From positions 1 through 41,344 of the forward strand of contig JAUYUF010000085.1 in the NCBI GenBank assembly GCA_030694835.1: 41,344 nt of DNA. The letters are read 5' to 3'. A program made the position numbers and the translations under genes. The DNA is from Flavobacteriaceae bacterium (GTDB lineage Bacteria; Bacteroidota; Bacteroidia; Flavobacteriales; Flavobacteriaceae). The notes under the pieces are model-generated. The model had not been told where the DNA came from. It ran no database searches and saw only the letters and a list, made by a program, of their open reading frames with translations. Below are positions 19,497-34,893 of the stretch, piece by piece; position 1 is the stretch's first letter, and every line of letters begins with the position of its first letter.

Positions 19497-19850
19497 TTAT
19501 TCGTTGTATAACCAAGCTTTTTTAGATAATAATTGCGCTTCTGTTTCTTGATGATCTTCATCAAGTACACAACAATCAACTGGACATACAGAAGCACATT
19601 GAGGCTCATCATGAAACCCTTTACACTCAGTACATTTATCAGTGATAATGAAATAAAACTCATCAGATTTAGGTTCATTCATTGCTTCAGCATCTACCTC
19701 AGAACCATTACTTGGTATAGTAACCATTCCTTTTAATCCTGTGTTATCAGAGTACGCCCACTCTGCATCTGGTTCGTAAATTGCATTGTTTGGACATTCA
19801 GACACACAAGCATCACAATTAATACAGTCCTCAGTTATTTTAATAGCCAT
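19497..19850 (-). CDS. fdx: 2[4Fe-4S] ferredoxin with Alvin-type second cluster motif and long inter-motif insert
   Basis: C9-x2-C-x2-C-x3-CP and C73-x2-C-x8-C-x3-CP. 53 residues separate the two motifs. 117 aa. Confidence 0.9.
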   Translation of the reverse strand: MAIKITEDCINCDACVSECPNNAIYEPDAEWAYSDNTGLKGMVTIPSNGSEVDAEAMNEPKSDEFYFIITDKCTECKGFHDEPQCASVCPVDCCVLDEDHQETEAQLLSKKAWLYNE

Positions 19851-19954: not shown

Positions 19955-21820
19955 ATGATTTCAAACGAAGATAATATTAAAGAACACTTTGCAAGGGAAA
20001 ATCATAAAATTGACACAGCTGTTATTCGGTTTGTAGGAGATTCTGGTGATGGAATGCAATTAACTGGAACTCAATTTTCTGATACCGCTGCATTATTCGG
20101 TAATGATGTAGCAACATTTCCCAATTATCCTGCAGAAATTCGTGCTCCTCAGGGCAGTTTGTATGGGGTTTCAGGCTTCCAAGTTCAATTTGGAAGTGTA
20201 GAAGTTAGCACTCCTGGTGACGAACTAGATTTATTAGTTGCCATGAATCCTGCTGGATTAAAAACAAATTTATTTGCTGTAAAAGCTGGAGGAACAATAA
20301 TTGTTGATACAGACGCATTTAATAAGAAGAACTTAGAAAAGGCTAAATACGAAACTAATCCTTTAGAAGATGACAGTTTAAACAACTATCGTGTTATTAA
20401 AGCAGACATTTCAGGTTTAACCCGTGAAAGTCTAAAAGATTTAGGTCTTGATAATAAAAGTATTTTACGTAGTAAAAATATGTTTACACTAGGAATGGTT
20501 TACTTTATGTACAACCGTTCTTTGGAACATTCTGAAAGCTTCTTAAATAAAAAATTTAAAAGTAAACCATTAATTGCTGAAGCAAATATTAAAGCTATAA
20601 GAACAGGGTTTTATTACGCAGAAACATTAGAATTAATGTCATCTACTTATATTGTAGAACCTGCTAAAATGGAAGCCGGAACTTATCGAGTTGTTATGGG
20701 TAACGATGCAACCGCATGGGGATTTATAGCTGCTGCTCAAAAAGCTGGTTTAGATTTATTTTTAGGTTCTTATCCTATTACGCCAGCAACAGACATATTA
20801 CACGAATTGGTTAAGCATCGTCATTTTGGGATTAAAACTTTCCAAGCTGAAGATGAAATAGCTGGTATAACATCTGCCATCGGAGCTTCATTTGCAGGAA
20901 GTTTAGCAATTACAACTACTTCTGGCCCAGGTCTAGCCTTAAAAGGTGAAGCTATCGGCTTAGCAATGATTGCTGAGTTGCCTTTAGTTATTGTTGATGT
21001 TCAACGTGGTGGTCCTTCAACAGGATTACCAACTAAAACAGAACAATCTGATTTATTACAAGCTATGTATGGTAGAAATGGAGAAAGTCCTGTGATTGTT
21101 ATTGCAGCGAGTACTCCAGCCAACTGTTTTGATTTTGCTTTTGAAGCCTCAAAATTGGCCTTAGAACATATGACACCAGTTATTTTATTAACTGATGGAT
21201 TTATTGCAAATGGTTCTGCACCTTGGAAAATAGTAAGTATAAATGACTTACCTGAGATAAAAACTAAACTTGTACCAAACGGAACAACTCATTACGACGC
21301 ATATGTTAGAGATGAAGATCGTTTAGCAAGAAGTTGGGCTATTCCTGGAACACCAGGTTTAGAGCACCGTATTGGTGGTTTAGAAAAAGACAAAGTAACA
21401 GGTTGCGTAAATCAAGGTCCTGAAAACCATGAATACATGTGTAATATAAGAGCTGAAAAAGTGAGACGTGTTGCTGACTTTATTCCAAATATTGAAGCAG
21501 AATATGCACAAGAAGGTGATTTATTAGTTGTTGGTTGGGGAGGTACTTTTGGAAACATTCATGCAGCTGTTAAAGAAATGGCTGATGCAGGATATAAAAT
21601 TGGGCATGCTCAATTTAACTACATCAATCCGTTGCCAAAAAATACTGCTGAATTATTTTCTAGATACAAAAAAGTTGTTGTTTGTGAATTGAACTTAGGT
21701 CAATTAGTTAAAATGTTTAGAAGTGAATTCAGTGATATTGAATTCTCACAATACAACAAAGTTCAAGGATTACCATTTACTAAATCAGAATTAACTCAAC
21801 ATTTTAAAGGGTTAATTTAA
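19955..21820 (+). CDS. korA: 2-oxoglutarate:ferredoxin oxidoreductase, alpha subunit (fused gamma+alpha domains)
   Basis: 621 aa. N-terminal gamma-like GDSGDGMQLTG motif, followed by the pyrimidine-binding alpha region (YPITPATDILHEL). Confidence 0.88.
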   Translation: MISNEDNIKEHFARENHKIDTAVIRFVGDSGDGMQLTGTQFSDTAALFGNDVATFPNYPAEIRAPQGSLYGVSGFQVQFGSVEVSTPGDELDLLVAMNPAGLKTNLFAVKAGGTIIVDTDAFNKKNLEKAKYETNPLEDDSLNNYRVIKADISGLTRESLKDLGLDNKSILRSKNMFTLGMVYFMYNRSLEHSESFLNKKFKSKPLIAEANIKAIRTGFYYAETLELMSSTYIVEPAKMEAGTYRVVMGNDATAWGFIAAAQKAGLDLFLGSYPITPATDILHELVKHRHFGIKTFQAEDEIAGITSAIGASFAGSLAITTTSGPGLALKGEAIGLAMIAELPLVIVDVQRGGPSTGLPTKTEQSDLLQAMYGRNGESPVIVIAASTPANCFDFAFEASKLALEHMTPVILLTDGFIANGSAPWKIVSINDLPEIKTKLVPNGTTHYDAYVRDEDRLARSWAIPGTPGLEHRIGGLEKDKVTGCVNQGPENHEYMCNIRAEKVRRVADFIPNIEAEYAQEGDLLVVGWGGTFGNIHAAVKEMADAGYKIGHAQFNYINPLPKNTAELFSRYKKVVVCELNLGQLVKMFRSEFSDIEFSQYNKVQGLPFTKSELTQHFKGLI

Positions 21821-21832
21821 ATATTGAAAATT

Positions 21833-22840
21833 ATGGAAAGTAACGTTAAATATACATTCAAAGATTTTGCATCTGATCAAGAAGTAAGATGGTGTCCAGG
21901 TTGTGATGACTATGTTGTTTTAAGAGCAATGCAAAAAGCATTACCAGAAATGGGTGTCAAAAAAGAAGATGTTGTATTTGTATCCGGTATTGGATGCTCT
22001 TCACGTTTTCCCTACTATATGGATGCCTATGGATTTCATGGAATTCATGGTAGAGCACCTGGAATTGCAACTGGAGTTAAATTAGCTAATCCAAATTTAA
22101 GTGTTTGGATTATGACTGGAGATGGAGATGCCATGGCAATTGGAGGAAATCACTTCATACATTTATTAAGAAGAAATATCGATTTAAACATCGTATTGTT
22201 TAATAATGAAATTTATGGTTTAACTAAAGGTCAGTTTTCACCAACTTCATTATTGGGTCAAAAAACTAAATCATCACCATACGGTAATACACAACCTCCT
22301 TTCAATGCAGGAGAATTAGCTATTGGTGCTCGTTCACGTTTTTATGCTAGAGTTCCTGGAAATGAGCCAAAAACTATGACAGATATCTTTATTCAGGCTG
22401 AGAGATTTAAAGGGACTTCATTAATTGAAATTCTGCAAAACTGCGTTATTTTTAATGATGGTTGTTTTACTCAATATACTGATAAAGAAGTAAAATCAGA
22501 CATGCAACTATTTTTAGAACATGGCAAACCTATGATTTTTGGAAAAGAAAGCAATAAAGGTATTGTTTTAAAAGGTTTAAAATTAGAAGTTGTAACGCTA
22601 GGTGAAAATGGAATAACAGAAAATGATTTGTTAATTCATGATGCTAAAGAAGATGACTCAACCTTACACCAAATGTTAATCAGACTTAAATATCCATTAG
22701 TAATGGGTATTGTTAGAAGTGTAGAAGAGATGGCTTTTGGCGAAAGAGAAAGAGAATTGACAGAAAAAATTAAGTTAAAATCTAATTTCACATCTGTAGA
22801 TGATTTATTCTTCTCGGGTGAAACATACGAAGTAAAGTAA
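21833..22840 (+). CDS. korB: 2-oxoglutarate:ferredoxin oxidoreductase, beta (TPP-binding) subunit
   Basis: WCPGCDDY cluster/TPP region and the GDGDAMAIGGNH TPP motif. ATG at 21833 is preferred over the TTG at 21824. Confidence 0.88.
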   Translation: MESNVKYTFKDFASDQEVRWCPGCDDYVVLRAMQKALPEMGVKKEDVVFVSGIGCSSRFPYYMDAYGFHGIHGRAPGIATGVKLANPNLSVWIMTGDGDAMAIGGNHFIHLLRRNIDLNIVLFNNEIYGLTKGQFSPTSLLGQKTKSSPYGNTQPPFNAGELAIGARSRFYARVPGNEPKTMTDIFIQAERFKGTSLIEILQNCVIFNDGCFTQYTDKEVKSDMQLFLEHGKPMIFGKESNKGIVLKGLKLEVVTLGENGITENDLLIHDAKEDDSTLHQMLIRLKYPLVMGIVRSVEEMAFGERERELTEKIKLKSNFTSVDDLFFSGETYEVK

Positions 22841-22902: not shown

Positions 22903-23253
22903 ATGGGATCAGAAGCTCTTATAGTATTTTTATTATCTGGTGTTGCCTTAGTTGCCGGCGCCAATTTTTTATCTAATTTAATTTCACATAAGTCAGATAA
23001 TCCGAGTAAAAGAGAACCTTATGAGTGTGGTATGGAAACAATTGGACCTACTTGGGTTCAATTTAAAGTTGGGTACTATTTATTCGCTATCTTATTTCTC
23101 ATCTTTGATGTAGAGATAGCTTTTCTAGTGCCATGGGCCGTTGTTTTTAAAGAAGTCGGTCTAGTTGCTTTGGTTGAAATACTTATATTCTTATTAATTC
23201 TTGGTTTAGGATTAATCTATGCTTGGAAAAAACGCGCATTACGATGGGAATAG
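22903..23253 (+). CDS. nuoA: NADH-quinone oxidoreductase-like complex, subunit A
   Basis: 116 aa with 3 TM. YECG and FDVE motifs. Confidence 0.92.
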
Positions 23254-23801
23254 AAAAGAATGAATTAGTAAATGATTTCCCTGGACAAATAATCCCAGGT
23301 GGAAATGGTGGTAATATTACCATTACTACACTAGACAAAGTGATTAATTGGGGACGCTCCAACTCACTGTGGTCTCTTTATTTTGGAACTAGCTGTTGTG
23401 CAATTGAAATGATGCAAACAGGTGCAGCTCGTCATGATTACTCAAGATTTGGATTTGAAGTGGCACGTCCTTCTCCTAGACAAGCTGATTTAATTATCAT
23501 CGCTGGAACTATTGTTAATAAAATGGCTCCTGTTTTACGTCGTTTATACGACCAAATGGCAGAACCTAAATATGTAATTGCAATGGGAGCATGTGCCATT
23601 TCAGGTGGTCCATTTTACTACAATACATACTCTGTAGTAAAAGGTGCAGATCATGTAATTCCTGTTGATGTTTATGTTCCTGGATGTCCTCCAAGACCTG
23701 AAGCGCTACTAGAAGGAATGATGATGCTTCAAGAAAAAATTAGAACAGAAAGTATGAAACACAAGGTAAATCCTATTGATGGATTTGACCAAGGATTATA
23801 A
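23244..23801 (+). CDS. nuoB: Complex I subunit B (N2 cluster)
   Basis: SCCAIEM, GACA and PGCPPRPE cysteine motifs. ATG at 23244 overlaps the nuoA end by 10 nt. The track's TTG at 23223 is less likely. Confidence 0.93.
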
Positions 23802-23811
23802 AATAATAGGT

Positions 23812-24273
23812 ATGACAAATAGCGAATTACAAACTTTAATAAACTCCTGGAATTTTGAAGTAGAATTTTCTGAAGCTGAATCTCAGTTTTTAAACATTAC
23901 TGTTAAACCTGAAAATCTACATCAACTTGGCTTACAACTTAAATCAAACAAGGAAACTTCGTTTGATTTTCTGTTTTGTGTAACTGGAATGGATTGGGGA
24001 ACTGATCTTGGAGTTGTGTATCATTTAGAATCAACTACTCATAGACATCAAATTGTTGTTAAGGTTAAAACCTCAGATAGAGAAAACCCAACTTTTGATT
24101 CTGTTTGTGATATTTGGTATACAGCAGAATTCCACGAAATGGAAGTTTTTGATTTCTTTGGAATCAAATTCAACAATCATCCAAACTTGAAGCGTTTATT
24201 TATGCCGCTAGATTGGGTTGGTTATCCGTTGAGAAAAGATTATGTAGATGAGGTTAATATGGTTATAAAATAA
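23812..24273 (+). CDS. nuoC: Complex I subunit C
   Basis: The EFHEMEVFDFFGIKF and LRKDY motifs are typical of the 30-kDa subunit. ATG at 23812 is preferred over the TTG at 23776, which overlaps nuoB. Confidence 0.9.
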   Translation: MTNSELQTLINSWNFEVEFSEAESQFLNITVKPENLHQLGLQLKSNKETSFDFLFCVTGMDWGTDLGVVYHLESTTHRHQIVVKVKTSDRENPTFDSVCDIWYTAEFHEMEVFDFFGIKFNNHPNLKRLFMPLDWVGYPLRKDYVDEVNMVIK

Positions 24274-24280
24274 CAGATTA

Positions 24281-25402
24281 ATGACAACAACAATCGAAAC
24301 TAACACTTTTAAATCTGAAGAATACTTTATCAATATGGGGCCTCAACACCCTGCAACGCACGGTGTTTTACGTCTTTTATTAACAATTGATGGAGAGATT
24401 ATTAAGAATGTGGAACCTGATTTAGGGTACATCCACCGTTCTATAGAAAAAATGTGTGAGCGTGATAGCTATCAGCAAATCGTTCACCTTACAGATCGTA
24501 TGGACTATTTATCTTCTCATATTAATAATGAGGCAGTATGTTTAACTGTAGAAAATGCATTAGGACTTGAAATTCCTGAACGTGTAAAAGTTATCAGAAC
24601 TATTCTTGCTGAACTTACACGTTTAGCTTCACACCAATTATGGTGGGGCGTAATGGGAATGGACGTAGGTGCATTAACAACTTATTTTTATGGTTTTAGA
24701 GATCGCGAATTAATCAATGATATTTTTGAAGAAACTTGTGGTGCTCGTTTAACAATGAATTACAATATTCCAGGTGGTTTAATGTTTGATATCCACCCAA
24801 ATTTTGTAAAACGTACAAAAGATTTTATTGCTCATTTCAAAACTAAATTACCAGAATATGACACCTTATTAACTGGAAACGTAATTTTCCAAAAACGTAC
24901 TCAAGGTGTTGGTATTTTAACCAAAGAAGATGCCATTTCTTTCGGAACAACAGGGCCAGTAGCGCGTGCTTCAGGTTTTTCTTGTGATATAAGAAAACAT
25001 CATCCATATAGTGCTTATGACCGCGTTCAATTTAATGAAGCTATAAGTACCGTTGGAGATACATTTACGCGTTATCAAATGCGTATTCAAGAAATGTGGG
25101 AATCTATTTCTATTATTGATCAATTAATTGATAATATTCCTGATGGCGATTTTAAAGTAGCAACAAATGCTGTAATTAAATTACCAAAAGGAGAGTTTTA
25201 TCAAAAAGTAGAAACAGCTCGTGGTGAGTTAGGAGTATTTATCGTAAGTGATGGAAAGAAAAGTCCATATCGCATGAAATTCCGTTCACCAGGATTCTCA
25301 AATCTTTCAGCTTTGAAAAAAATGGCTGTAGGAAGTAAATTAGGAGATTTAGTAGCCATCATGGCGACTTTAGATATTGTTGTACCAGATATTGACAGAT
25401 AA
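24281..25402 (+). CDS. nuoD: Complex I subunit D
   Basis: [15 protein letters not shown] and GYIHRSIEK, ending in VVPDIDR (49-kDa subunit). Confidence 0.95.
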
Positions 25403-25406
25403 AATT

Positions 25407-26474
25407 ATGAATTTACCTTTAAGTATAACAAAAAATATCCACGATTGGCTTTTCGAATTAATGTCTGCACCAATAGCGGCAGTAGTAGAAATGGTATTAA
25501 TCGCGGTGGCATTCCTGGGATTCTTTGCATTAGCAGGATTGTTGTTAGTATATATGGAGCGTAGAATCGCTGCATTTTTTCAATTGCGTTTAGGCCCTAA
25601 CCGAGTTGGACCTCAAGGATTGTTTCAAACTATTGCCGATGCTTTAAAATTAGTATCAAAAGAGTTGGTAGTAATCGATAAAGCGGATAAATTTTTATAT
25701 AATTTGGCACCTTATTTTGTAATTGTAGCTTCTTTAATGGCACTTTCAGTATTACCTTTTTCACAAGAATTTCATGCTTTTGATATCAATATTGGGGTGT
25801 TTTTCTTGTTAGCAGTTTCATCAATTGGTGTAATTGGAATTCTTTTAGGAGGATGGGCTAGTAACAACAAATATGCTTTAATTGGCGCCATGCGAAGTGG
25901 TTTACAAACTATCAGTTATGAGCTTTCTGTTGGACTTTCAATTTTAACCATTGTTTTATTAGCAGGTTCATTACAGATTTCAGAAATAATAGCTGTACAA
26001 CAAAAAGGAGGTTGGTTTATCATCCAAGGTCATATTCCGGCATTTATTGCGTTTATGATTTTTATGATAGCCGGAACTGCTGAAACCAATAGAGCACCAT
26101 TCGATTTAGTAGAAGCTGAATCAGAACTTGGAGCAGGTTTCCATACAGAATACTCTGGGATGAAATTTGCTTATTTCTTTTTAGCTGAATTTATCAACAT
26201 GTTTATTATTGCCGCTATTGGAACTATTTTGTTCTTCGGAGGTTGGTTATCACCTTTTGGAATTACAGAATCTATTCCTTTATTGGGCGTTATGTGGTTT
26301 ATGTTAAAAGTACTTGGTTTAGTTTTCTTGATGATGTGGTTCCGTTGGACGTTTCCACGTTTAAGAGTTGACCAATTATTAACCTTAGAGTGGAAATATT
26401 TATTACCAATTAACTTATTCAATATAGTGTTTATGGCAGTTATTGTTTGGTTAGGTTTAACTATAAATTTTTAG
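25407..26474 (+). CDS. nuoH: Complex I subunit H
   Basis: The [28 protein letters not shown] and EAESEL motifs. ATG at 25407 lies 4 nt after the nuoD stop. Confidence 0.95.
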
Positions 26475-26477
26475 AGG

Positions 26478-26960
26478 ATGAGTTATTTTTCAGATATATA
26501 TAACGGTGTTAAAACTTTACTTACAGGAATGTCTGTAACAGGTAAGTATTTTTTCAATGCCCGTAAAGAAATCATCACGCAACAATTTCCAGATAATCGA
26601 GCTACCTTAAAAATGTTCGATCGTTTTAGAGGTGAAGTTGTGATGCCACATGATGAGAACAATGAACACCGTTGTACAGGTTGTCAGAAATGTGAATTAG
26701 CGTGTCCTAATGGAACAATTGAAATCATTTGGGATAGAGTTGTTGATGAAGAAACAGGAAAGAAAATAAAAGTAATTGATAAACATATTTATCATCTTTC
26801 TATGTGTACCATGTGTGGATTGTGTATAGAGGCTTGTCCTACAGATGCAATTAAATGGAGTCAAAACTTCAGCAATTCATCGTATGACAGAACTCAATTG
26901 ACAAAAGTGTTGAACAAACCAGGTTCTAAAATTATGCCTGGTGTAAAAGACAAAGAATAG
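26478..26960 (+). CDS. nuoI: Complex I subunit I (2x[4Fe-4S])
   Basis: CTGCQKCELACP and CTMCGLCIEACP. Confidence 0.93.
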   Translation: MSYFSDIYNGVKTLLTGMSVTGKYFFNARKEIITQQFPDNRATLKMFDRFRGEVVMPHDENNEHRCTGCQKCELACPNGTIEIIWDRVVDEETGKKIKVIDKHIYHLSMCTMCGLCIEACPTDAIKWSQNFSNSSYDRTQLTKVLNKPGSKIMPGVKDKE

Positions 26961-26961
26961 T

Positions 26962-27477
26962 ATGGAACAAATTATATTTTACATTTTATCACTTATAATG
27001 GTGGTGTTTGCAATTGCTTCCGTTACCAGTCGTATGATTTTAAGATCAGTAGTGTATCTTTTATTTGTACTTTGTGCAATTGCAGGATTTTATTTCTTGA
27101 TTGATTATAACTACCTAGCGGCTATACAATTAACTGTTTATGCTGGAGGTATAATTGTACTGTTTATTTTCTCAGTATTATTAATTCATCATATCGAATC
27201 TAAACTTGATGTTGCCTCTTTAGGTAGAAGAATTTTAGTTGGATTAGCAAGTTTAGTTGGTGCTGGATTAACACTTTCTGTAATTTGGGCGCACCCATTT
27301 ATAGTAGCTGAAAATAGCGCGAGATCTACTGAAGTAAGAGATATCGGATTAGGAATGTTAAGTTATGGCGATGGTGGATATATACTTCCTTTTGAAGTTA
27401 TCAGTATTCTGTTATTAGCAGCTATGATTGGAGCAATTATAGTAGCAAAAGGAACTCGTTTAACCATAAAAGACTAA
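26962..27477 (+). CDS. nuoJ: Complex I subunit J
   Basis: 171-aa membrane protein in the canonical operon position. YAGGIIVLFIF motif. Confidence 0.88.
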   Translation: MEQIIFYILSLIMVVFAIASVTSRMILRSVVYLLFVLCAIAGFYFLIDYNYLAAIQLTVYAGGIIVLFIFSVLLIHHIESKLDVASLGRRILVGLASLVGAGLTLSVIWAHPFIVAENSARSTEVRDIGLGMLSYGDGGYILPFEVISILLLAAMIGAIIVAKGTRLTIKD

Positions 27478-27481
27478 TCTA

Positions 27482-27799
27482 ATGATTCAAGGAGTATCTA
27501 TATATGAAATTTTAACCGTTACAACCTTATTATTCTTTATTGGAATTTATGGTTTTATAACGCGAAAAAACTTGATTTCAATTCTACTATCTGTTGAATT
27601 GATCTTAAATTCAGTGGCAATAAATTTTGTTGTAATCAACAAATATTTATACCCTGATATGTTACAAGGAGTTTATTTTTCTGTATTTATTATTGCAGTA
27701 GCAGCCGCAGAAACGGCATTGGCTATTTCAATTATCATCAATTTATACAGATTGGTAACATCCGTAGAAGTGAAAGCAACAGAAACTATGAAGTTTTAA
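27482..27799 (+). CDS. nuoK: Complex I subunit K
   Basis: 105 aa with 3 TM. SVELILNSV and AAAETALAISI motifs. Confidence 0.9.
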   Translation: MIQGVSIYEILTVTTLLFFIGIYGFITRKNLISILLSVELILNSVAINFVVINKYLYPDMLQGVYFSVFIIAVAAAETALAISIIINLYRLVTSVEVKATETMKF

Positions 27800-27810
27800 T
27801 ATTTTAGAAA

Positions 27811-29742
27811 ATGGATTTTACATATACAATATTAATACCATTAATTCCGCTAGCTGTTTTCTTAATCTTAGGAATCGGTTCCTTAAAAATTAAAGAAAAT
27901 GTTGCTGGAATTGTGGGAGTTGCAGGTTTACTAACTTCTACTATTTTATCATACTATACCGCTTTTCAATACTTTTTCAATGTTGGAAAAGTAAATGGTA
28001 TATATCAAACGTTTGTTGAACAAACTCGTTGGATGAACTTTACTGACACGCTCCATATCGATATGGGTGTTTTAATTGATCCTATTTCTGTAATGATGTT
28101 AGTAGTTGTTTCTACGATCTCATTAATGGTTCATTTATACAGTAGAGGTTATATGCACGGAGACCAAGGTTTCACCCGTTTCTTTGCGTATTTATCCTTA
28201 TTCTCATTCTCTATGTACGGGTTGGTATTAGCTACTAACTTATTCCAGATTTATATTTTCTGGGAATTAGTGGGAGTTTCATCATTCTTATTAATTGGAT
28301 ACTATTACACAAAACCATCAGCAGTAGCTGCTTCTAAAAAAGCATTTATCGTAACACGTTTTGCAGATTTTGGTTTCTTGATGGGAATTTTAATGATTGG
28401 TTATTACACTGGTACATTTGATTTTATGACCTTAAATAACCCAACTGCTTTACAAGATTTAACTTCACCAATTATGCAAAATGCTGGAATTACCTTTATG
28501 GGATTCTCGGTAATCACTACTGCATTAGTTTTGATTTTTGCAGGTGGTGCTGGTAAATCTGCGATGTTCCCATTGCACATTTGGTTACCAGATGCAATGG
28601 AAGGTCCAACACCTGTTTCTGCCTTAATTCACGCTGCAACCATGGTTGTAGCTGGAGTATATTTAGTAGCACGTTTATTTCCAATGTTCTATTTTGTTGA
28701 AGGTGGAATTGCACTTGAAGTAGTAGCTTATGTCGGAGGATTTTCATCCCTGATTGCTGCACTTATCGCTTTAACACAACACGATATTAAACGTGTTTTG
28801 GCCTTTTCAACCATGTCACAAATTGGTTATATGATGATGGCTTTAGGTATTTCTGGGTATGGAGATGTAGATGGTTTAGGTTTTACCGCTTCGATGTTCC
28901 ACTTATTTACCCACGCAATGTTTAAAGCATTATTATTCTTAGGCGCTGGTTCTGTTATTCATGCTGTTCATAGCAATGTTTTACAAGACATGGGTGGTTT
29001 AAGAAAATATATGCCTATTACCAATATTACATTCTTAATTGCAGCTTTAGCAATTGCTGGAGTTCCTCCATTTGCAGGTTTCTTCAGTAAAGATGAAATT
29101 TTAGCTGCTGCTTATGAAAGTAACCAGTTATTATTTTGGGTAGAATGGGTTGTAGCTGGATTAACTGCTTTCTACATGTTCCGTTTATACTTTGGAATTT
29201 TCTGGGGTAAAGACACGATTTACAAACACACGCCGCATGAATCACCATTATCAATGACATTACCTTTAATGTTCTTGGCAGTTGTTTCTGCTATTGCTGG
29301 TTTTGTTCCTTTCAGCCAGTTTATAAGTCCAGATTTAGTAGGTTATACCACACATATTCACATGAATATTGCTGCGATGTCAGTTGGTGTTGGTGTGTTA
29401 GGTATTGCGATTGCTTGGATTATGTACAAAAAAGAAACCAATATTGCTGATAAAATTTCATCAGCTTTCGGATTCTTATATCAATGGACTTTCAGAAAGT
29501 TCTATATCGATGAACTATACTTGTTCATTACGCGCGAAATCATCTTCAAACGCATTGCGCAACCATTTGCATGGTTTGATAAAAAAGTTGTTGATGGCAC
29601 CATGAATTTAATTGGAAACTCTACTGTAGATGCTTCTAAGAAAATTAAAGGATTGCAATCCGGTAAAGTACAAGATTATGCCTTTGCATTTATTTCAGGG
29701 GTTGTAATTATAGTAATGGTTTTTATTTATTTCATGAACTAA
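27811..29742 (+). CDS. nuoL: Complex I subunit L (antiporter-like)
   Basis: 643 aa. WELVGVSSFLLIGYY and HIWLPDAMEGPTPVSALIHAATMV. Confidence 0.95.
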   Translation: MDFTYTILIPLIPLAVFLILGIGSLKIKENVAGIVGVAGLLTSTILSYYTAFQYFFNVGKVNGIYQTFVEQTRWMNFTDTLHIDMGVLIDPISVMMLVVVSTISLMVHLYSRGYMHGDQGFTRFFAYLSLFSFSMYGLVLATNLFQIYIFWELVGVSSFLLIGYYYTKPSAVAASKKAFIVTRFADFGFLMGILMIGYYTGTFDFMTLNNPTALQDLTSPIMQNAGITFMGFSVITTALVLIFAGGAGKSAMFPLHIWLPDAMEGPTPVSALIHAATMVVAGVYLVARLFPMFYFVEGGIALEVVAYVGGFSSLIAALIALTQHDIKRVLAFSTMSQIGYMMMALGISGYGDVDGLGFTASMFHLFTHAMFKALLFLGAGSVIHAVHSNVLQDMGGLRKYMPITNITFLIAALAIAGVPPFAGFFSKDEILAAAYESNQLLFWVEWVVAGLTAFYMFRLYFGIFWGKDTIYKHTPHESPLSMTLPLMFLAVVSAIAGFVPFSQFISPDLVGYTTHIHMNIAAMSVGVGVLGIAIAWIMYKKETNIADKISSAFGFLYQWTFRKFYIDELYLFITREIIFKRIAQPFAWFDKKVVDGTMNLIGNSTVDASKKIKGLQSGKVQDYAFAFISGVVIIVMVFIYFMN

Positions 29743-29755
29743 CGTATTAAGAATT

Positions 29756-31240
29756 ATGGATATATTATCATTATTTGTTACGGTACCTGTTTTAACGATT
29801 TTGTTTTTAGCATTTACTAAAAACTTGCAACAGGTTCGTATAGTATCGCTCACAGGTATGCTTGTTCAATTAGGAATGGCTATCAACTTACTCTTCGCTT
29901 ATTTTAGAGAAAGAGCAGTTAATACAGATATTATGGTTTTCACCAAAGATTATGTTTGGTTCGAATCATTAAACATACATTACGCTATTGGAGTTGATGG
30001 AATTTCAGTAGCGTTGATTTTACTTACGTCAATCGTAGTATTGGCAGGGGTATTTATTTCATGGAAAGTTGCTGATTTATCTAAAGAATTTTTCATCTCA
30101 TTAATCGTATTAGCAACAGGAGTTTTTGGATTCTTTATTTCTCTCGATTTATTTACGATGTTCGTTTTTTATGAAATCGCGGTAATTCCGATGTATTTAT
30201 TGATTGGAATTTGGGGTTCTGGTCCAAAAGAATATTCAGCAATGAAATTAACGCTGATGTTAATGGGAGCTTCTGCCCTTTTATTGGTAGGAATTTTAGG
30301 AATTTACTTTAATTCTAACGCTGATGGTGGTGCATTAACTTTCAATATTTTAGAAATTGCACAAGTAAATATTCCTTTTGAAGCGCAACGTTTATTCTTC
30401 CCTTTAACATTTTTAGGGTTTGCTGTTTTGGGTGCTTTATTCCCTTTTCATACTTGGTCACCAGACGGTCACGCATCTGCCCCAACGGCTGTATCGATGT
30501 TACACGCAGGTGTATTAATGAAATTAGGTGGATATGGAATTTTTAGAGTTGCCATGTATTTATTGCCACTTGGAGCAATTGATTGGTCTACATTCTTCAT
30601 TGTATTATCTTCTTTCGGAGTAATTTATGGAGCATTAGCAGCATTACGTCAAAATGATTTAAAATACATCAACGCCTATTCTTCTGTGAGTCACTTAGGA
30701 ATGGTATTAGTTGCTTTATTGATGATGAATAAAACAGCCTGGAACGGAGCAATATTACAATCGCTTTCTCACGGATTTATGACAGCACTTTTCTTCGCCT
30801 TAATTGGGATGATTTACGAAAGAACACATACTAGAGATATTCAAAAATTAGGAGGTTTACTAAAAGTATTACCTTTTATTTCTGCCACATATGTTATTGC
30901 TGGATTAGCAAATTTAGGCTTACCTGGATTTAGTGGATTCGTTGCAGAGATGAACATCTTTGTTGGAGCTTTTGAAAACGCTGATTTATTCAGAAGAGTT
31001 GCTACTGTAGTAGTAGTTTCTGCGATTGTAGTAACAGCAGTTTACATTTTAAGAGTGGTGGGTATCATGTTAATGGGGCCTGTAAAAAATGAGGAATTTA
31101 ACAACTTACCAGCATCAACTTGGTTTGAACGTTACGGAGTGTATCTGTTATTAATTCCTATTGCAGGAATGGGTATAGCACCACTTTGGTTAAGCGATAT
31201 GATTTTAGAAAGTCTAACGCCGTTTATAGCAAGATTTTAA
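29756..31240 (+). CDS. nuoM: Complex I subunit M (antiporter-like)
   Basis: 494 aa. FVFYEIAVIPMYLLIGIWG and HTWSPDGHASAPTAVSMLHAGVLMKLG. Confidence 0.95.
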   Translation: MDILSLFVTVPVLTILFLAFTKNLQQVRIVSLTGMLVQLGMAINLLFAYFRERAVNTDIMVFTKDYVWFESLNIHYAIGVDGISVALILLTSIVVLAGVFISWKVADLSKEFFISLIVLATGVFGFFISLDLFTMFVFYEIAVIPMYLLIGIWGSGPKEYSAMKLTLMLMGASALLLVGILGIYFNSNADGGALTFNILEIAQVNIPFEAQRLFFPLTFLGFAVLGALFPFHTWSPDGHASAPTAVSMLHAGVLMKLGGYGIFRVAMYLLPLGAIDWSTFFIVLSSFGVIYGALAALRQNDLKYINAYSSVSHLGMVLVALLMMNKTAWNGAILQSLSHGFMTALFFALIGMIYERTHTRDIQKLGGLLKVLPFISATYVIAGLANLGLPGFSGFVAEMNIFVGAFENADLFRRVATVVVVSAIVVTAVYILRVVGIMLMGPVKNEEFNNLPASTWFERYGVYLLLIPIAGMGIAPLWLSDMILESLTPFIARF

Positions 31241-31262
31241 TAATATTAAAATATAGAAACTA

Positions 31263-32690
31263 ATGGATTTTAGTAGTTTATTATTAATGCGTCACGAATT
31301 TATTTTAACCGCTCTTCTATTATTGATGATTGTGGCTGAAATAGTTGTAAGTGAACAAAACAAGAAGAACTTAGTCAATTTTGGCGTACTTCTTTTTGCA
31401 ATCCATACGGCTATAGGTTTATTGCCACTAGCTGATGGAGTATTATTTGGCGGAATGTTTAAAACTACCGTTTTAACACACTTTTTCAAAAGTGTATTAA
31501 ATATTGGTGTGCTTATTTTATTATTGCAATCTGCTGATTGGTTACGTGATAAAGTGGTTAGTCAACAAAAAGCAACCGAATTTTTCATGTTGATTTTCTC
31601 ATCGTTATTGGGATTATATTTCATGATTTCTGCAGGAGATTTTTTAATGTTCTACATCGGTTTAGAATTATCAACATTACCTGTTGCAGCTTTAGCAGCA
31701 TATGAATCATTAAAACAAAAATCGAGCGAGTCTGGTATCAAATTAATATTATCTGCAGCTTTGGCCTCTGGTACTTCTTTATTTGGGATTACGATGATGT
31801 ATGCCACTTCAGGATCATTATTCTTTGATATGATGACTATCACAGCATCTAACTTAACCATATTAGGTTTCTTGATGTTCTTTGCTGGTTTAGCGTTTAA
31901 AATATCGTTAGCGCCATTCCATTTTTGGACTGCTGACGTTTACGAAGGAGCACCAATTAGTGTTGCATCATATTTATCTGTTATTTCAAAAGGTGCTGCT
32001 GCATTTGTATTGATGATTTTGTTGTTTACCTTGTTTAGACCTTTAGAAAGTATTTGGGTAAATTTAATGTACGGTGTTGCTTTATTAACCATGTTTATTG
32101 GTAACTTATTTGCAATTCGTCAACAAAATTTAAAACGATTCTTAGCGTTCTCATCGATTGCACAAGCAGGTTTTATCTTATTGGGTTTACTTTCAGTTGA
32201 TCAATTAGGAGCAACTACTGTAATTTACTTTATAATGATTTATGTATTTTCTAACCTAGGAGCTTTTGGTGTGGTACAAGCCATATCAAATCAAACTGGT
32301 AAAGAAAATATTGATGATTATGATGGTTTGTACAGAACGAATCCGAAATTAAGTTTAGTAATGTTATTGGCTTTATTCTCTTTAGCGGGAATACCTCCAG
32401 TAGCTGGTTTCTTTGGCAAAATTTTCTTATTTACAGCAGCTGCATCTCAAGGATATTATTTATTAGTATTTATTGGTGTTGTGAATGTAACCATTGCATT
32501 ATACTATTACTTATTGGTAGTAAGAGCCATGTTTTTACGCAAAAGTGAAAATGCGATTCCTTACTTTAAAAGTAAATGGATGATGAAATTAGGCTTGACT
32601 ATTACCGTACTTGGTATCTTAATTATAGGTATGTACAGTCCGCTGTACGAATACATATTTGAAATTAGTAACCTTATTTTTAAATCATAA
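31263..32690 (+). CDS. nuoN: Complex I subunit N (antiporter-like)
   Basis: 475 aa. FYIGLELSTLP and PFHFWTADVYEGAP. Confidence 0.93.
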   Translation: MDFSSLLLMRHEFILTALLLLMIVAEIVVSEQNKKNLVNFGVLLFAIHTAIGLLPLADGVLFGGMFKTTVLTHFFKSVLNIGVLILLLQSADWLRDKVVSQQKATEFFMLIFSSLLGLYFMISAGDFLMFYIGLELSTLPVAALAAYESLKQKSSESGIKLILSAALASGTSLFGITMMYATSGSLFFDMMTITASNLTILGFLMFFAGLAFKISLAPFHFWTADVYEGAPISVASYLSVISKGAAAFVLMILLFTLFRPLESIWVNLMYGVALLTMFIGNLFAIRQQNLKRFLAFSSIAQAGFILLGLLSVDQLGATTVIYFIMIYVFSNLGAFGVVQAISNQTGKENIDDYDGLYRTNPKLSLVMLLALFSLAGIPPVAGFFGKIFLFTAAASQGYYLLVFIGVVNVTIALYYYLLVVRAMFLRKSENAIPYFKSKWMMKLGLTITVLGILIIGMYSPLYEYIFEISNLIFKS

Positions 32691-32693
32691 CGT

Positions 32694-33020
32694 ATGGCAC
32701 TTTTAGGATCACATCAATTTGGAGATATAGACGGACAACGCGTTACTTATGTTGAAAAAGGAACTACTCAAGAACGTGTAGATTTTCTTACTAAGCTACT
32801 TAAACACAATAATTTTGAAGTTGTAATAGGTGAAGACAAACGCAAATCAGAAGAAGAACCTCAACTATATACGGTTGCAGTTACAGATATGGTTTTTAAT
32901 CCAACTGTTTGGGTATACCAACGCCGATTAAGAACATTAGATGGAAGAATTGTTTCTCCATCGTATTGGAATCAAGTAGATGAAGATACCAAACCTCAGT
33001 ATTGGGAATATATGAAGTAA
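32694..33020 (+). CDS. Unknown 108-aa soluble protein, translationally coupled to nuoN
   Basis: The ATG lies 3 nt after the nuoN stop, on the same strand, and a strong terminator follows. No TM segment, no Cys and no motif I recognise. Rich in Trp/Tyr (WVYQ, SYWNQ, PQYWEY). Confidence 0.7.
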   Translation: MALLGSHQFGDIDGQRVTYVEKGTTQERVDFLTKLLKHNNFEVVIGEDKRKSEEEPQLYTVAVTDMVFNPTVWVYQRRLRTLDGRIVSPSYWNQVDEDTKPQYWEYMK

Positions 33021-33039
33021 TTCATTTTAAATAATAAGA

Positions 33040-33066
33040 AAGCTGCCAAATGGTAGCTTTTTTTTA
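33040..33066. terminator. Bidirectional rho-independent terminator (end of the kor-nuo unit; also serves the convergent antiporter gene)
   Basis: Stem aagctgcc (33040-33047), loop aaat, stem ggtagctt (33052-33059, one G-U pair), then a T-run. Confidence 0.8.
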
Positions 33067-34893
33067 TAAATCAGTAATTTCTTTTCCTAGGTATATAAAT
33101 TTATAACCTTTCTGAACTTTTGAAGCATCTTTAAAAGAAGTAATAATATGTATAACACCAAAATTATCTTTAATAAATAATGGAATAGAATATTTTGCTT
33201 GATTAACTTTTTCTAAAACATTATTATAATGTTCTGCAGATTTTAAGTGAAGTTCATTTATAGTTGGATAATCGCGAGCAACTTCACTTAAATTAATAAA
33301 ATCATCTGTTTTAGAAAACAATACTTCAGATGTTACACCTTTAGGATCTTTCAATTCATCTGGACTGATAAGACGGAAAGTTCCGCTTTCTCCAAAATTA
33401 GCTCCAAACTTATCGATAGCAAATTTATTAACCTCATTACTACCTGAAAGTGCTAACAAATAACCTATATCATTTAATTCAATATTTTCAAATAAATCAT
33501 CTGAATAGATATTATCTTCAAAAGCTTCTAATTGTAATTCTTTTGCTTTATTAACTAAAATAGGATTACTATCAATTAAAACAACTCTTCTCCCTTGTTC
33601 TTGTAAGTATAAAGCAATTAATCTTGAAGCTTCAGAGGCGCCTATCATTAGAACTCCTGATGAATGCTTTAAAAAAACTCCTAAAAATTTAGAAACCATC
33701 CTGGCTGTAGTAGCATTTAATAAAACAGTTCCTAAAACTACCATAAAAACTAATGGAGTTATGTATTCTGCACCTTCCTTTCCTGCTAATACTAATTTTA
33801 AACCAAATAAAGAAGCAATACCAGCCGCTACAATACCACGAGGTCCTACCCAACTTATAAATACTTTTTCTCTAAAATTTAATTCAGATTTATTGGCACT
33901 TAGAAATACACCAATTGGTCGGATTAAAAATACTATGACAAAAAATAACAATAATATTTTGATGTTTAAAAGTAATTGTAAATCAGCTATGTTGATATTT
34001 GCCGCTAATAAAATAAACAACATGGATATCAATAAAATACTGATAGTTTCTTTAAAATAAATAATATCTTTTAGTTCAGCAACATTTTTATTACCGATAA
34101 CCATTCCCATAACCACTACTGTTAATAATCCAGAATCGTGCGAAATTAAATCTGAAATTACAAAAACCAATAAAACAGTTGCCAAAGTGATTAAATTCAT
34201 CAAATAATGAGGAATTAAATTCTTTTTTATAGCAAAATACAGAGCATATGCAGCAGCAAATCCCAATGTAAAACCAGCAAGTATAATCTTACCAAATTCT
34301 GTTAAGGCCTGTAATGTATATACTTCACCATTTCCTTGTCCTACATTAATAAATTCAAAAACTAATACTGCTATTAAAGCTCCAATAGGATCAATTAGAA
34401 TACTTTCCCATTTTAAAACTGTTGAAATTTCTTTTTTTAAAGGCAAGTTTCTCAATATTGGATTAATTACTGTTGGACCAGTTACAATTATCAAAGATGA
34501 AAACAAAAATGACATAGCCCAATTAAGACCAATAAAAAAATGTACGGCAATGGCAGCGCCTATAAAGGTTACAATAGATCCTACTGTAATTAGTTTAAAA
34601 ATTACAGGACCAACCTTTTTAATCTCACTTTTCTTCAGCGTCATACTTCCTTCAAAAAGAATTACACTTATTGCTAGTGATACAAAACTGAATAATTGAT
34701 CACTAGGGAAAAGACCATTTGTTCCATTCCACATAGGTTCAATCCATTTACTCCCATCATCTGAAATTAAAGTCGAAAATGGCCCTACCAATAAACCAAT
34801 TATTATAAGTGGTAAAATTGCAGGTAATTTAGACTTCCATGCAATCCATTGTGCAAATATTCCGAGAATCACAATACTGGAAAGTTCTAACAT
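33064..34893 (-). CDS. CPA1-family Na+(K+)/H+ antiporter with C-terminal RCK/TrkA-N-like domain
   Basis: 609 aa. About 12 TM N-terminal half (NhaP-like), then a soluble Rossmann-like segment (VLMIGASEASRLIALYLQEQGRRVVLID). Confidence 0.8.
   Translation of the reverse strand: MLELSSIVILGIFAQWIAWKSKLPAILPLIIIGLLVGPFSTLISDDGSKWIEPMWNGTNGLFPSDQLFSFVSLAISVILFEGSMTLKKSEIKKVGPVIFKLITVGSIVTFIGAAIAVHFFIGLNWAMSFLFSSLIIVTGPTVINPILRNLPLKKEISTVLKWESILIDPIGALIAVLVFEFINVGQGNGEVYTLQALTEFGKIILAGFTLGFAAAYALYFAIKKNLIPHYLMNLITLATVLLVFVISDLISHDSGLLTVVVMGMVIGNKNVAELKDIIYFKETISILLISMLFILLAANINIADLQLLLNIKILLLFFVIVFLIRPIGVFLSANKSELNFREKVFISWVGPRGIVAAGIASLFGLKLVLAGKEGAEYITPLVFMVVLGTVLLNATTARMVSKFLGVFLKHSSGVLMIGASEASRLIALYLQEQGRRVVLIDSNPILVNKAKELQLEAFEDNIYSDDLFENIELNDIGYLLALSGSNEVNKFAIDKFGANFGESGTFRLISPDELKDPKGVTSEVLFSKTDDFINLSEVARDYPTINELHLKSAEHYNNVLEKVNQAKYSIPLFIKDNFGVIHIITSFKDASKVQKGYKFIYLGKEITDL

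Follow-up and report, generated by a model that had tools for sequence, protein, structure and literature searches.

Which protein hands electrons to the 11-subunit, headless form of complex I in non-photosynthetic bacteria is a long-standing question (PMC3144371; PMC11238625; PMC6560451). Headless NDH-1 is known in Bacteroidota (PMC6560451; PMC11238625), and for enzymes of this type additional subunits of the cyanobacterial kind "are not excluded" (PMC11238625). The window analyzed here, a stretch of 41,344 nucleotides from a member of the Flavobacteriaceae (contig JAUYUF010000085.1), raises the question in a concrete form: its nuo operon is followed by a gene, here called gene X, whose product the preliminary description could assign to no family by eye and regarded as a candidate 12th subunit, donor-docking factor or assembly factor.

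The nuo operon of the window (22903-32690, plus strand) consists of the 11 genes nuoA, B, C, D, H, I, J, K, L, M and N, all assigned by Pfam and NCBIfam matches, and has no nuoEFG; the order A-B-C-D-H-I-J-K-L-M-N was the same in all 27 relatives examined. Upstream of it, and likewise assigned with Pfam and NCBIfam, lie korAB (19955-22840), which encode a two-subunit 2-oxoacid:ferredoxin oxidoreductase, and a divergently oriented ferredoxin gene (19497-19850). The last core gene, nuoN (31263-32690, plus strand; Pfam Proton_antipo_M, E = 4.5e-64), ends with a TAA codon at 32688-32690, and the three bases CGT separate this stop from the ATG of gene X at 32694, giving the junction TAA-CGT-ATG (32688-32696, plus strand). 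Gene X (32694-33020, plus strand), for which we have an open reading frame with its translation, homologues and an AlphaFold2 model, comprises 108 codons. Ten bases past its stop codon begins a hairpin (33031-33067), flanked by an A-run before and a U-run after it, with a folding energy of -15.8 kcal/mol (z = -5.3; none of 200 shuffled sequences folded as well). A scan for consensus promoters and terminators did not list this hairpin, though folding shows it. A convergent K+/H+ antiporter gene (33064-34893, Pfam and NCBIfam) ends at 33064, and the hairpin is a probable two-way terminator that would close both the nuo-X unit and the antiporter gene. The view of gene X as the last cistron of the nuo unit, starting 3 nt after the nuoN stop and directly followed by a terminator, is thus borne out by the sequence read and the hairpin folded.

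Read through, the translation also agrees with the earlier characterization of protein X as soluble, rich in aromatic and charged residues and free of cysteine, and hence of Fe-S clusters. It contains 17 acidic and 14 basic residues, many tryptophans, tyrosines and phenylalanines, no cysteine, and no obvious hydrophobic or membrane segment. Across the whole family there is at most one, non-conserved, cysteine and no invariant histidine, so no ligand motif of an Fe-S or redox-cofactor protein was found in X.

Gene X is far more than a chance open reading frame, because it has 869 homologues of 100 to 120 residues at E <= 1e-3 in a word-indexed search, and its identity across genera is on a par with that of NuoN (58-72% among Flavobacteriaceae genera for X and 64-74% for NuoN, i.e., about equal conservation). 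All 869 homologues are named "hypothetical protein" at source and carry no precomputed Pfam domain. When 1.84 billion cluster representatives were searched exhaustively with phmmer, 124 clusters matched X, 57 of them at E <= 1e-10. An alignment of 21 sequences, each from another genus, has 45 invariant columns, among them H7, F9-G10, R16-V17-T18, E21-K22, the stretch D65-M-V-F-N-P-T71, W73, R77, D83-G84, Y91-W92 and Y103. More distant members (26-45% identity) retain two conserved halves, residues 1-46 and 55-105, joined by a linker of variable length. This linker is short and acidic (EDKRKSEEEP) in the flavobacterial proteins and Pro/Ala/Lys/Glu-rich, with 15 to 40 residues, in those of Chitinophagaceae and "Chlorobiota" (L055, L056, L061, L148-L155).

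The failure to place X by eye was upheld by every sequence search that we ran against known families. Neither Pfam (E <= 0.1) nor NCBIfam gave a match, and 61 aligned members had no Pfam family in common at E <= 1. A profile of X run against the sequences of PDB chains, including NDH-1 entries such as 6hum and 6khj, gave a best E of 0.49 and no Ndh chain, and the ESM Atlas returned unnamed Bacteroidota clusters only. By the Pfam and PDB profile searches, X does not belong to the NdhS family. Long Calx-beta and laminin-G proteins appeared among the weak sequence matches and were rejected as spurious repeat matches. In sequence, X fell outside all described families of accessory subunits that could be compared. 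X is a new, unnamed protein family, and the kind of role proposed for it is a known one.

The distribution of this family follows that of one type of nuo operon. In our sample of 201 Flavobacteriaceae genera, X was present in 23 genomes. A NuoD at least 70% identical to that of the window was found in 22 of these and in no other genome of the sample; the 23rd is an 83%-complete assembly in which X adjoins nuoN, and two genomes with only a distant NuoD (41-42%) are without X. The picture was the same in a sample of 401 Bacteroidota genomes, 345 of which have some NuoD: a NuoD at least 62% identical to that of the window occurs in 21, and X in 20 of those 21 and in none of the remaining genomes. 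In the largest family of that sample (87 genomes), which we take to be Bacteroidaceae, 84 genomes have a NuoD with 46-47% identity, and none of the 87 has X. Carriers include Aquimarina, Eudoraea, Lutibacter, Muriicola, Maribacter, Gaetbulibacter, Seonamhaeicola, Yeosuana, Robiginitalea and Salinimicrobium, many Chitinophagaceae metagenome-assembled genomes (MAGs) labelled Ferruginibacter or Sediminibacterium, and four "Chlorobiota" MAGs. The clade concerned, defined as 11-gene nuo operons with a NuoD at least 61% identical to that of the window, was found in Flavobacteriaceae, Chitinophagaceae, three further families and the "Chlorobiota" MAGs.

Within this clade the position of gene X is fixed. 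Scanning one genome per GTDB species yielded 343 loci with a profile of the flavobacterial proteins and more than 283 with a Chitinophagaceae member. Of the loci fetched, 80 and 84, respectively, 78 and 82 have nuoN as the immediate upstream neighbor of X, and the other four are cut by a contig end; every homologue with upstream sequence thus directly follows nuoN, and the spread independent of nuo that would have spoken against the preliminary description was not seen. Even members with 26-35% identity lie directly 3' of nuoN on the same strand. The gap between the two genes is 2-7 nt in 55 of 78 relatives, with a mode of 6. The gene downstream of X varies, and the antiporter gene is found there in only 11 of 80 loci. 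Gene X is therefore a real and conserved gene, strictly linked to one nuo clade, and, as an accessory subunit should be, it is encoded and co-distributed with the core subunits. The earlier proposal that X is tied to 11-subunit nuo operons stands insofar as X always follows nuoN and has to be narrowed insofar as X is confined to one clade of them: X is the mark of a single clade of the headless enzyme and not of the headless type at large.

A possible function was sought in the structure of the protein. An AlphaFold2 model built from 21 close homologues had a pLDDT of 45.8 and was discarded; a model built instead from an alignment of 61 diverse sequences, distant members included, reached a pLDDT of 85.4 and a pTM of 0.74. 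In this model, strands 8-12 and 15-24, a helix 26-38 and strands 43-47 and 59-63 form a beta-beta-alpha-beta-beta topology, to which short helices (70-75 and 89-92) are added, and the aromatic tail is less confident. Foldseek found no match to the model in the PDB at E <= 0.001. Its best row had E = 0.3, and among its weak top rows are domains of the ACT and PII types, with probabilities of 0.44-0.47 and E values of about 0.3. A VIA-align search covering 48,161 representative chains suggested the ring-building domain of EscJ/PrgK, which we rejected as a relative and take to share no more than a common arrangement, its best Z of 5.2 being below the Z of 7-8 that serves as a guide to noise. The best 50 rows of either search contained no subunit of complex I or NDH-1. 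NdhS has an SH3-like beta-barrel fold. We treat the predicted fold of X as a generic alpha/beta sandwich without identifiable relative.

Where such a protein might bind was addressed by complex prediction, a check that had been proposed together with the donor-docking idea. X, with its 61-row alignment, was modeled with NuoI, NuoD and NuoC, using alignments from X-bearing genomes. These three Q-module subunits were the only partners offered and were chosen because they are exposed where the N-module is missing. Three runs gave scores, which are the model's own confidence, of 0.73, 0.71 and 0.73, and three controls, in which X was swapped for either of two unrelated proteins or NuoD was swapped, gave 0.00. 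The three runs had at least 71% of their contacts in common, and the partner pLDDT was at least 80. In calibration, the mark was reached by 58 of the 80 complexes with a solved structure and by 2 of the 110 mismatched pairs, counts that hold only roughly for the X run with its own alignments and four chains. The score is not recall of a known structure, because no complex with an X-like protein has been solved. Tables of identity for each Nuo subunit singled out no partner of X.

The predicted complex has X at the top of the peripheral arm, bound to a hairpin of NuoI and to the tail of NuoC. The putative docking site on NuoI is a beta-hairpin between the two 4Fe-4S motifs (residues 79-109, codons at 26712-26804, plus strand), which was located by alignment and predicted contacts. 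The confident contacts of NuoI (79, 82-84, 101-102, 104, 106, 108-109, 138-139, 142 and 144) lie on the two strands of this hairpin between the CxxCxxCxxxCP motifs and in a C-terminal segment. A second predicted contact is the C-terminal tail of NuoC (residues 159-165, EVNMVIK, codons at 24250-24270, plus strand), of which residues 159-160 and 163-165, at the extreme C terminus, are confident contacts. On X itself, the confident contacts (3-7, 9, 16, 66-67, 69, 71-72, 75-78, 89-90, 93 and 95) are largely invariant residues.

Our preferred reading, which we would put at about 60%, is that X is a lineage-specific 12th, accessory subunit that is stably bound at this NuoI/NuoC site in the headless clade. 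X would be translated from the same mRNA as NuoN and would fold into a small alpha/beta domain with a tail rich in aromatic residues behind it, and its most conserved surface (H7, F9, R16 and the D-M-V-F-N-P-T motif) would pack against the tail of NuoC and both strands of the hairpin in NuoI. The predicted site is at the top of the peripheral arm, where 14-subunit enzymes carry the N-module. By holding the base of the hairpin, X may stabilize the exposed Fe-S subunit, and a hairpin held in this way may in turn shape the docking site for a soluble electron donor.

The suggestion of a hairpin-holding role is made because the equivalent hairpin of cyanobacterial NdhI binds ferredoxin and is propped by NdhV and NdhS. 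In the structure of cyanobacterial NDH-1L with ferredoxin, ferredoxin sits on the Lys-bearing NdhI hairpin and the C terminus of NdhH, and two lysines of the hairpin form bonds with it (PMC6992706). NdhV lies on the opposite side of the hairpin, which it "buttresses", and NdhS and NdhN also support NdhI without contacting ferredoxin (PMC6992706). Like NdhV and NdhS, X is a small soluble protein confined to a complex I relative without NuoEFG, and it is predicted to sit on NuoI, the counterpart of the NdhI on which those two subunits sit. The model places X on the hairpin that NdhV props in the cyanobacterial enzyme (NuoI residues 82-84 and 101-109), and any likeness to NdhV would be a functional one only. 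X differs from NdhV and NdhS in that it shows no sequence similarity to them in Pfam or among PDB sequences, that no Ndh subunit is found among its fold matches, that it is encoded inside the nuo operon and that it is predicted to touch the NuoC tail as well. The NdhS-like donor-docking role put forward in the preliminary description is therefore retained in one respect, a predicted NuoI/NuoC contact in the region of NdhS and NdhV, and abandoned in another, as kinship to NdhS in sequence was not found. By this analogy, X is best read as a non-homologous counterpart of NdhV and NdhS that would buttress a donor-docking hairpin. Of the ferredoxin-dependent relatives only this one has been solved, and the loop to which its ferredoxin binds is the site predicted for X.

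In the X clade, the NuoI hairpin has a lysine-rich tip, which reads GKKIK in the window and GKKKK in many relatives. By its resemblance to the cyanobacterial NdhI hairpin, this tip is itself a candidate for a donor site.

As to the donor, it is probably ferredoxin reduced by the linked KorAB; korAB are encoded next to nuo in several lineages. In Flavobacteriaceae and in two other families they immediately precede nuoA, and in the "Chlorobiota" MAGs they are adjacent but divergent. In Chitinophagaceae and in a family here called f16, korAB are not adjacent to nuo; genomes with unlinked korAB have a KorA orthologue elsewhere, whether or not they have X. A ferredoxin orthologue unlinked to nuo is present in Chitinophagaceae, and none was found in f16 with the ferredoxin of the window as query. 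That X affects donor docking at all is a proposal that we make tentatively, by analogy to the cyanobacterial enzyme. We are equally guarded about a bolder version, possible rather than probable, in which aerobic and microaerobic Bacteroidota have a ferredoxin:quinone oxidoreductase with X as its donor-gating subunit and X creates the ferredoxin site itself, as a non-homologous reinvention of NdhV and NdhS. The Lys-tipped hairpin clamped by X would then enable electron flow from 2-oxoglutarate through KorAB, ferredoxin and headless complex I to quinone, with conservation of energy. Many headless nuo operons lack X, and since such operons work without it, X is not essential for donor use in general.

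Evidence of a different kind comes from a lineage that appears to have lost the gene. Of the genomes of family f16, eight with a nuo operon of the X clade (NuoD 61-65%) were sampled; five of them, from four genera, carry X, and the three of genus g244 (L059, L162 and L163) gave no X even with a wide profile at E <= 1. This absence looks like one loss event. One of the genomes without X, G437, has a convergent carbonic anhydrase gene after nuoN, and a decayed copy of X was looked for after nuoN, in G437 as well as in the outgroup G425, and was not found.

The two predicted contact sites have changed in g244. The NuoI hairpin there falls 4 residues short of that in the sister genera with X. Among NuoI positions identical in the sisters, 5 of 8 contact positions are changed in at least two of the g244 genomes, against 12 of 93 other positions, an enrichment (one-sided Fisher p about 0.003, counted over positions) that reflects a single evolutionary event in three related and thus not independent genomes and that concerns a hairpin, a structure that tends to vary. 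The changes include D/H101 to L in all three genomes, I104 to H and H106 to E in two of the three, and M109 to C or S. The tail of NuoC reads N-[M/I/L]-[I/V] in all 22 readable sequences from 23 X-bearing loci (the tail was not recovered from L158), and N-T-P, N-P-P or N-P-T in g244. Two independent parts of the predicted interface have thus drifted in the lineage without X, which lends circumstantial support to the binding model. A caveat to this support is the outgroup G425, which is without X and has interface-like residues all the same.

The g244 genomes changed elsewhere as well. Twelve positions that are invariant in the 23 X-bearing loci are altered in g244. Six of these twelve are in the small membrane subunits NuoA, NuoJ and NuoK, that is, 6 of 69 invariant sites, compared with 6 of 691 elsewhere; the predicted binding of X to NuoI and NuoC leaves this unexpected excess unaccounted for.

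How firmly X would be held on the complex is a point on which these observations can be read in more than one way. X may be an assembly factor or chaperone that binds NuoI, and perhaps NuoC, transiently and is absent from the mature enzyme, for example by shielding the exposed Fe-S subunit or by guiding assembly of the Q-module. The linkage to nuoN and the predicted interface would suit a transient binder equally well, g244, which lost X, and G425, which lacks it, show that X is dispensable for the existence of the complex, and the cyanobacterial NdhS and NdhV are themselves loosely bound (PMC6992706). We nevertheless consider this unlikely, as the gap of 2-7 nt that separates X from nuoN in most genomes suggests that X is made in roughly equimolar amounts with a structural subunit, and as the changes at the NuoI and NuoC contacts after the loss of X suggest a lasting constraint on the surface of the mature enzyme, even if a transient partner could impose one too.

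If X is a stably bound subunit, as we favor, it may still have no say in electron transfer. The outgroup G425 (NuoD 58%) bears on this point: it lacks X and yet has kept interface-like residues in NuoI and NuoC together with the Lys-rich loop, so the loop does not need X. X might accordingly be a purely structural cap over the surface bared by the missing N-module, with no influence on the donor or on electron input. Besides the loop kept in G425, such a cap would be in keeping with predicted contacts that involve the tail of NuoC and the hairpin at its base rather than at its Lys-rich tip, and with the mildly acidic overall character of X, which is unlike a surface that attracts an acidic ferredoxin. 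In the ferredoxin-bound relative, though, subunits that do not contact ferredoxin tune its binding through the same hairpin, which makes a neutral cap distinctly unlikely; it is, moreover, a sub-case of the bound-subunit reading, from which it differs only in consequence.

That X acts off the complex altogether, as a small regulator, a ligand-binding (ACT- or PII-like) protein or a partner of KorAB or ferredoxin that rides on the nuo transcript, would agree with its generic beta-alpha-beta sandwich and the weak ACT-like and PII-like top matches but is very improbable, given that the linkage to nuoN persists across classes down to 26% identity whereas that to korAB comes and goes, that the scores of the complex runs stand against zero in every control, and that NuoI and NuoC diverged at the predicted interface once X was gone.

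Small soluble additions to complex I are known from other bacteria, and no match to X was found among those considered here. Nqo15 of Thermus and the supernumerary subunits of the NDUFS4, NDUFS6 and NDUFA12 type in Paracoccus are lineage-restricted add-ons of the hydrophilic arm of bacterial complex I. They occur on enzymes with an N-module, largely at the interface of that module, and have known folds and families, none of which X matches. In Campylobacter and Helicobacter, Cj1575c and Cj1574c replace nuoE and nuoF in a flavodoxin-fed complex I that retains NuoG, and their presumed role is to fit the enzyme to a protein donor of low potential that 2-oxoacid oxidoreductases reduce. Like X, these are small, unrelated proteins encoded within a nuo operon without the NADH-oxidizing subunits; unlike X, which follows nuoN in an operon without nuoG, they occupy the E/F position and NuoG is kept, and no similarity between them and X was detected. 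The headless NDH-1 of Bacteroides and Prevotella has the same 11 core genes and comes from the same phylum (PMC6560451; PMC11238625) but belongs to a different nuo clade.

These findings define an unnamed family as a marker of one clade of headless complex I, shared by many marine Flavobacteriaceae and by Chitinophagaceae of soil and freshwater. X offers a handle for tagging and purifying the complex and a target for deletion, with g244 as a natural control. Should the proposed role be true, X would represent a second, independently evolved way to dock a protein donor on complex I.

A few minor observations concern individual genomes. After nuoN, the outgroup G425 (L060:16338-16770) has a hairpin terminator and, on the opposite strand, two apparent tRNA genes that were recognized by eye from T-arm-like sequence. 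In two draft genomes, G558 (contigs C9 and C29) and G085 (contigs C167, C171 and C205), the nuo-X region is split over contigs, and short partial matches to X at contig ends are most likely assembly breaks and not extra copies. Many Bacteroidota genomes in the phylum sample have two or three NuoD homologues, which points to several complex I-type enzymes per genome, and Chitinophagaceae with the headless operon and X also have another, more distant NuoD.
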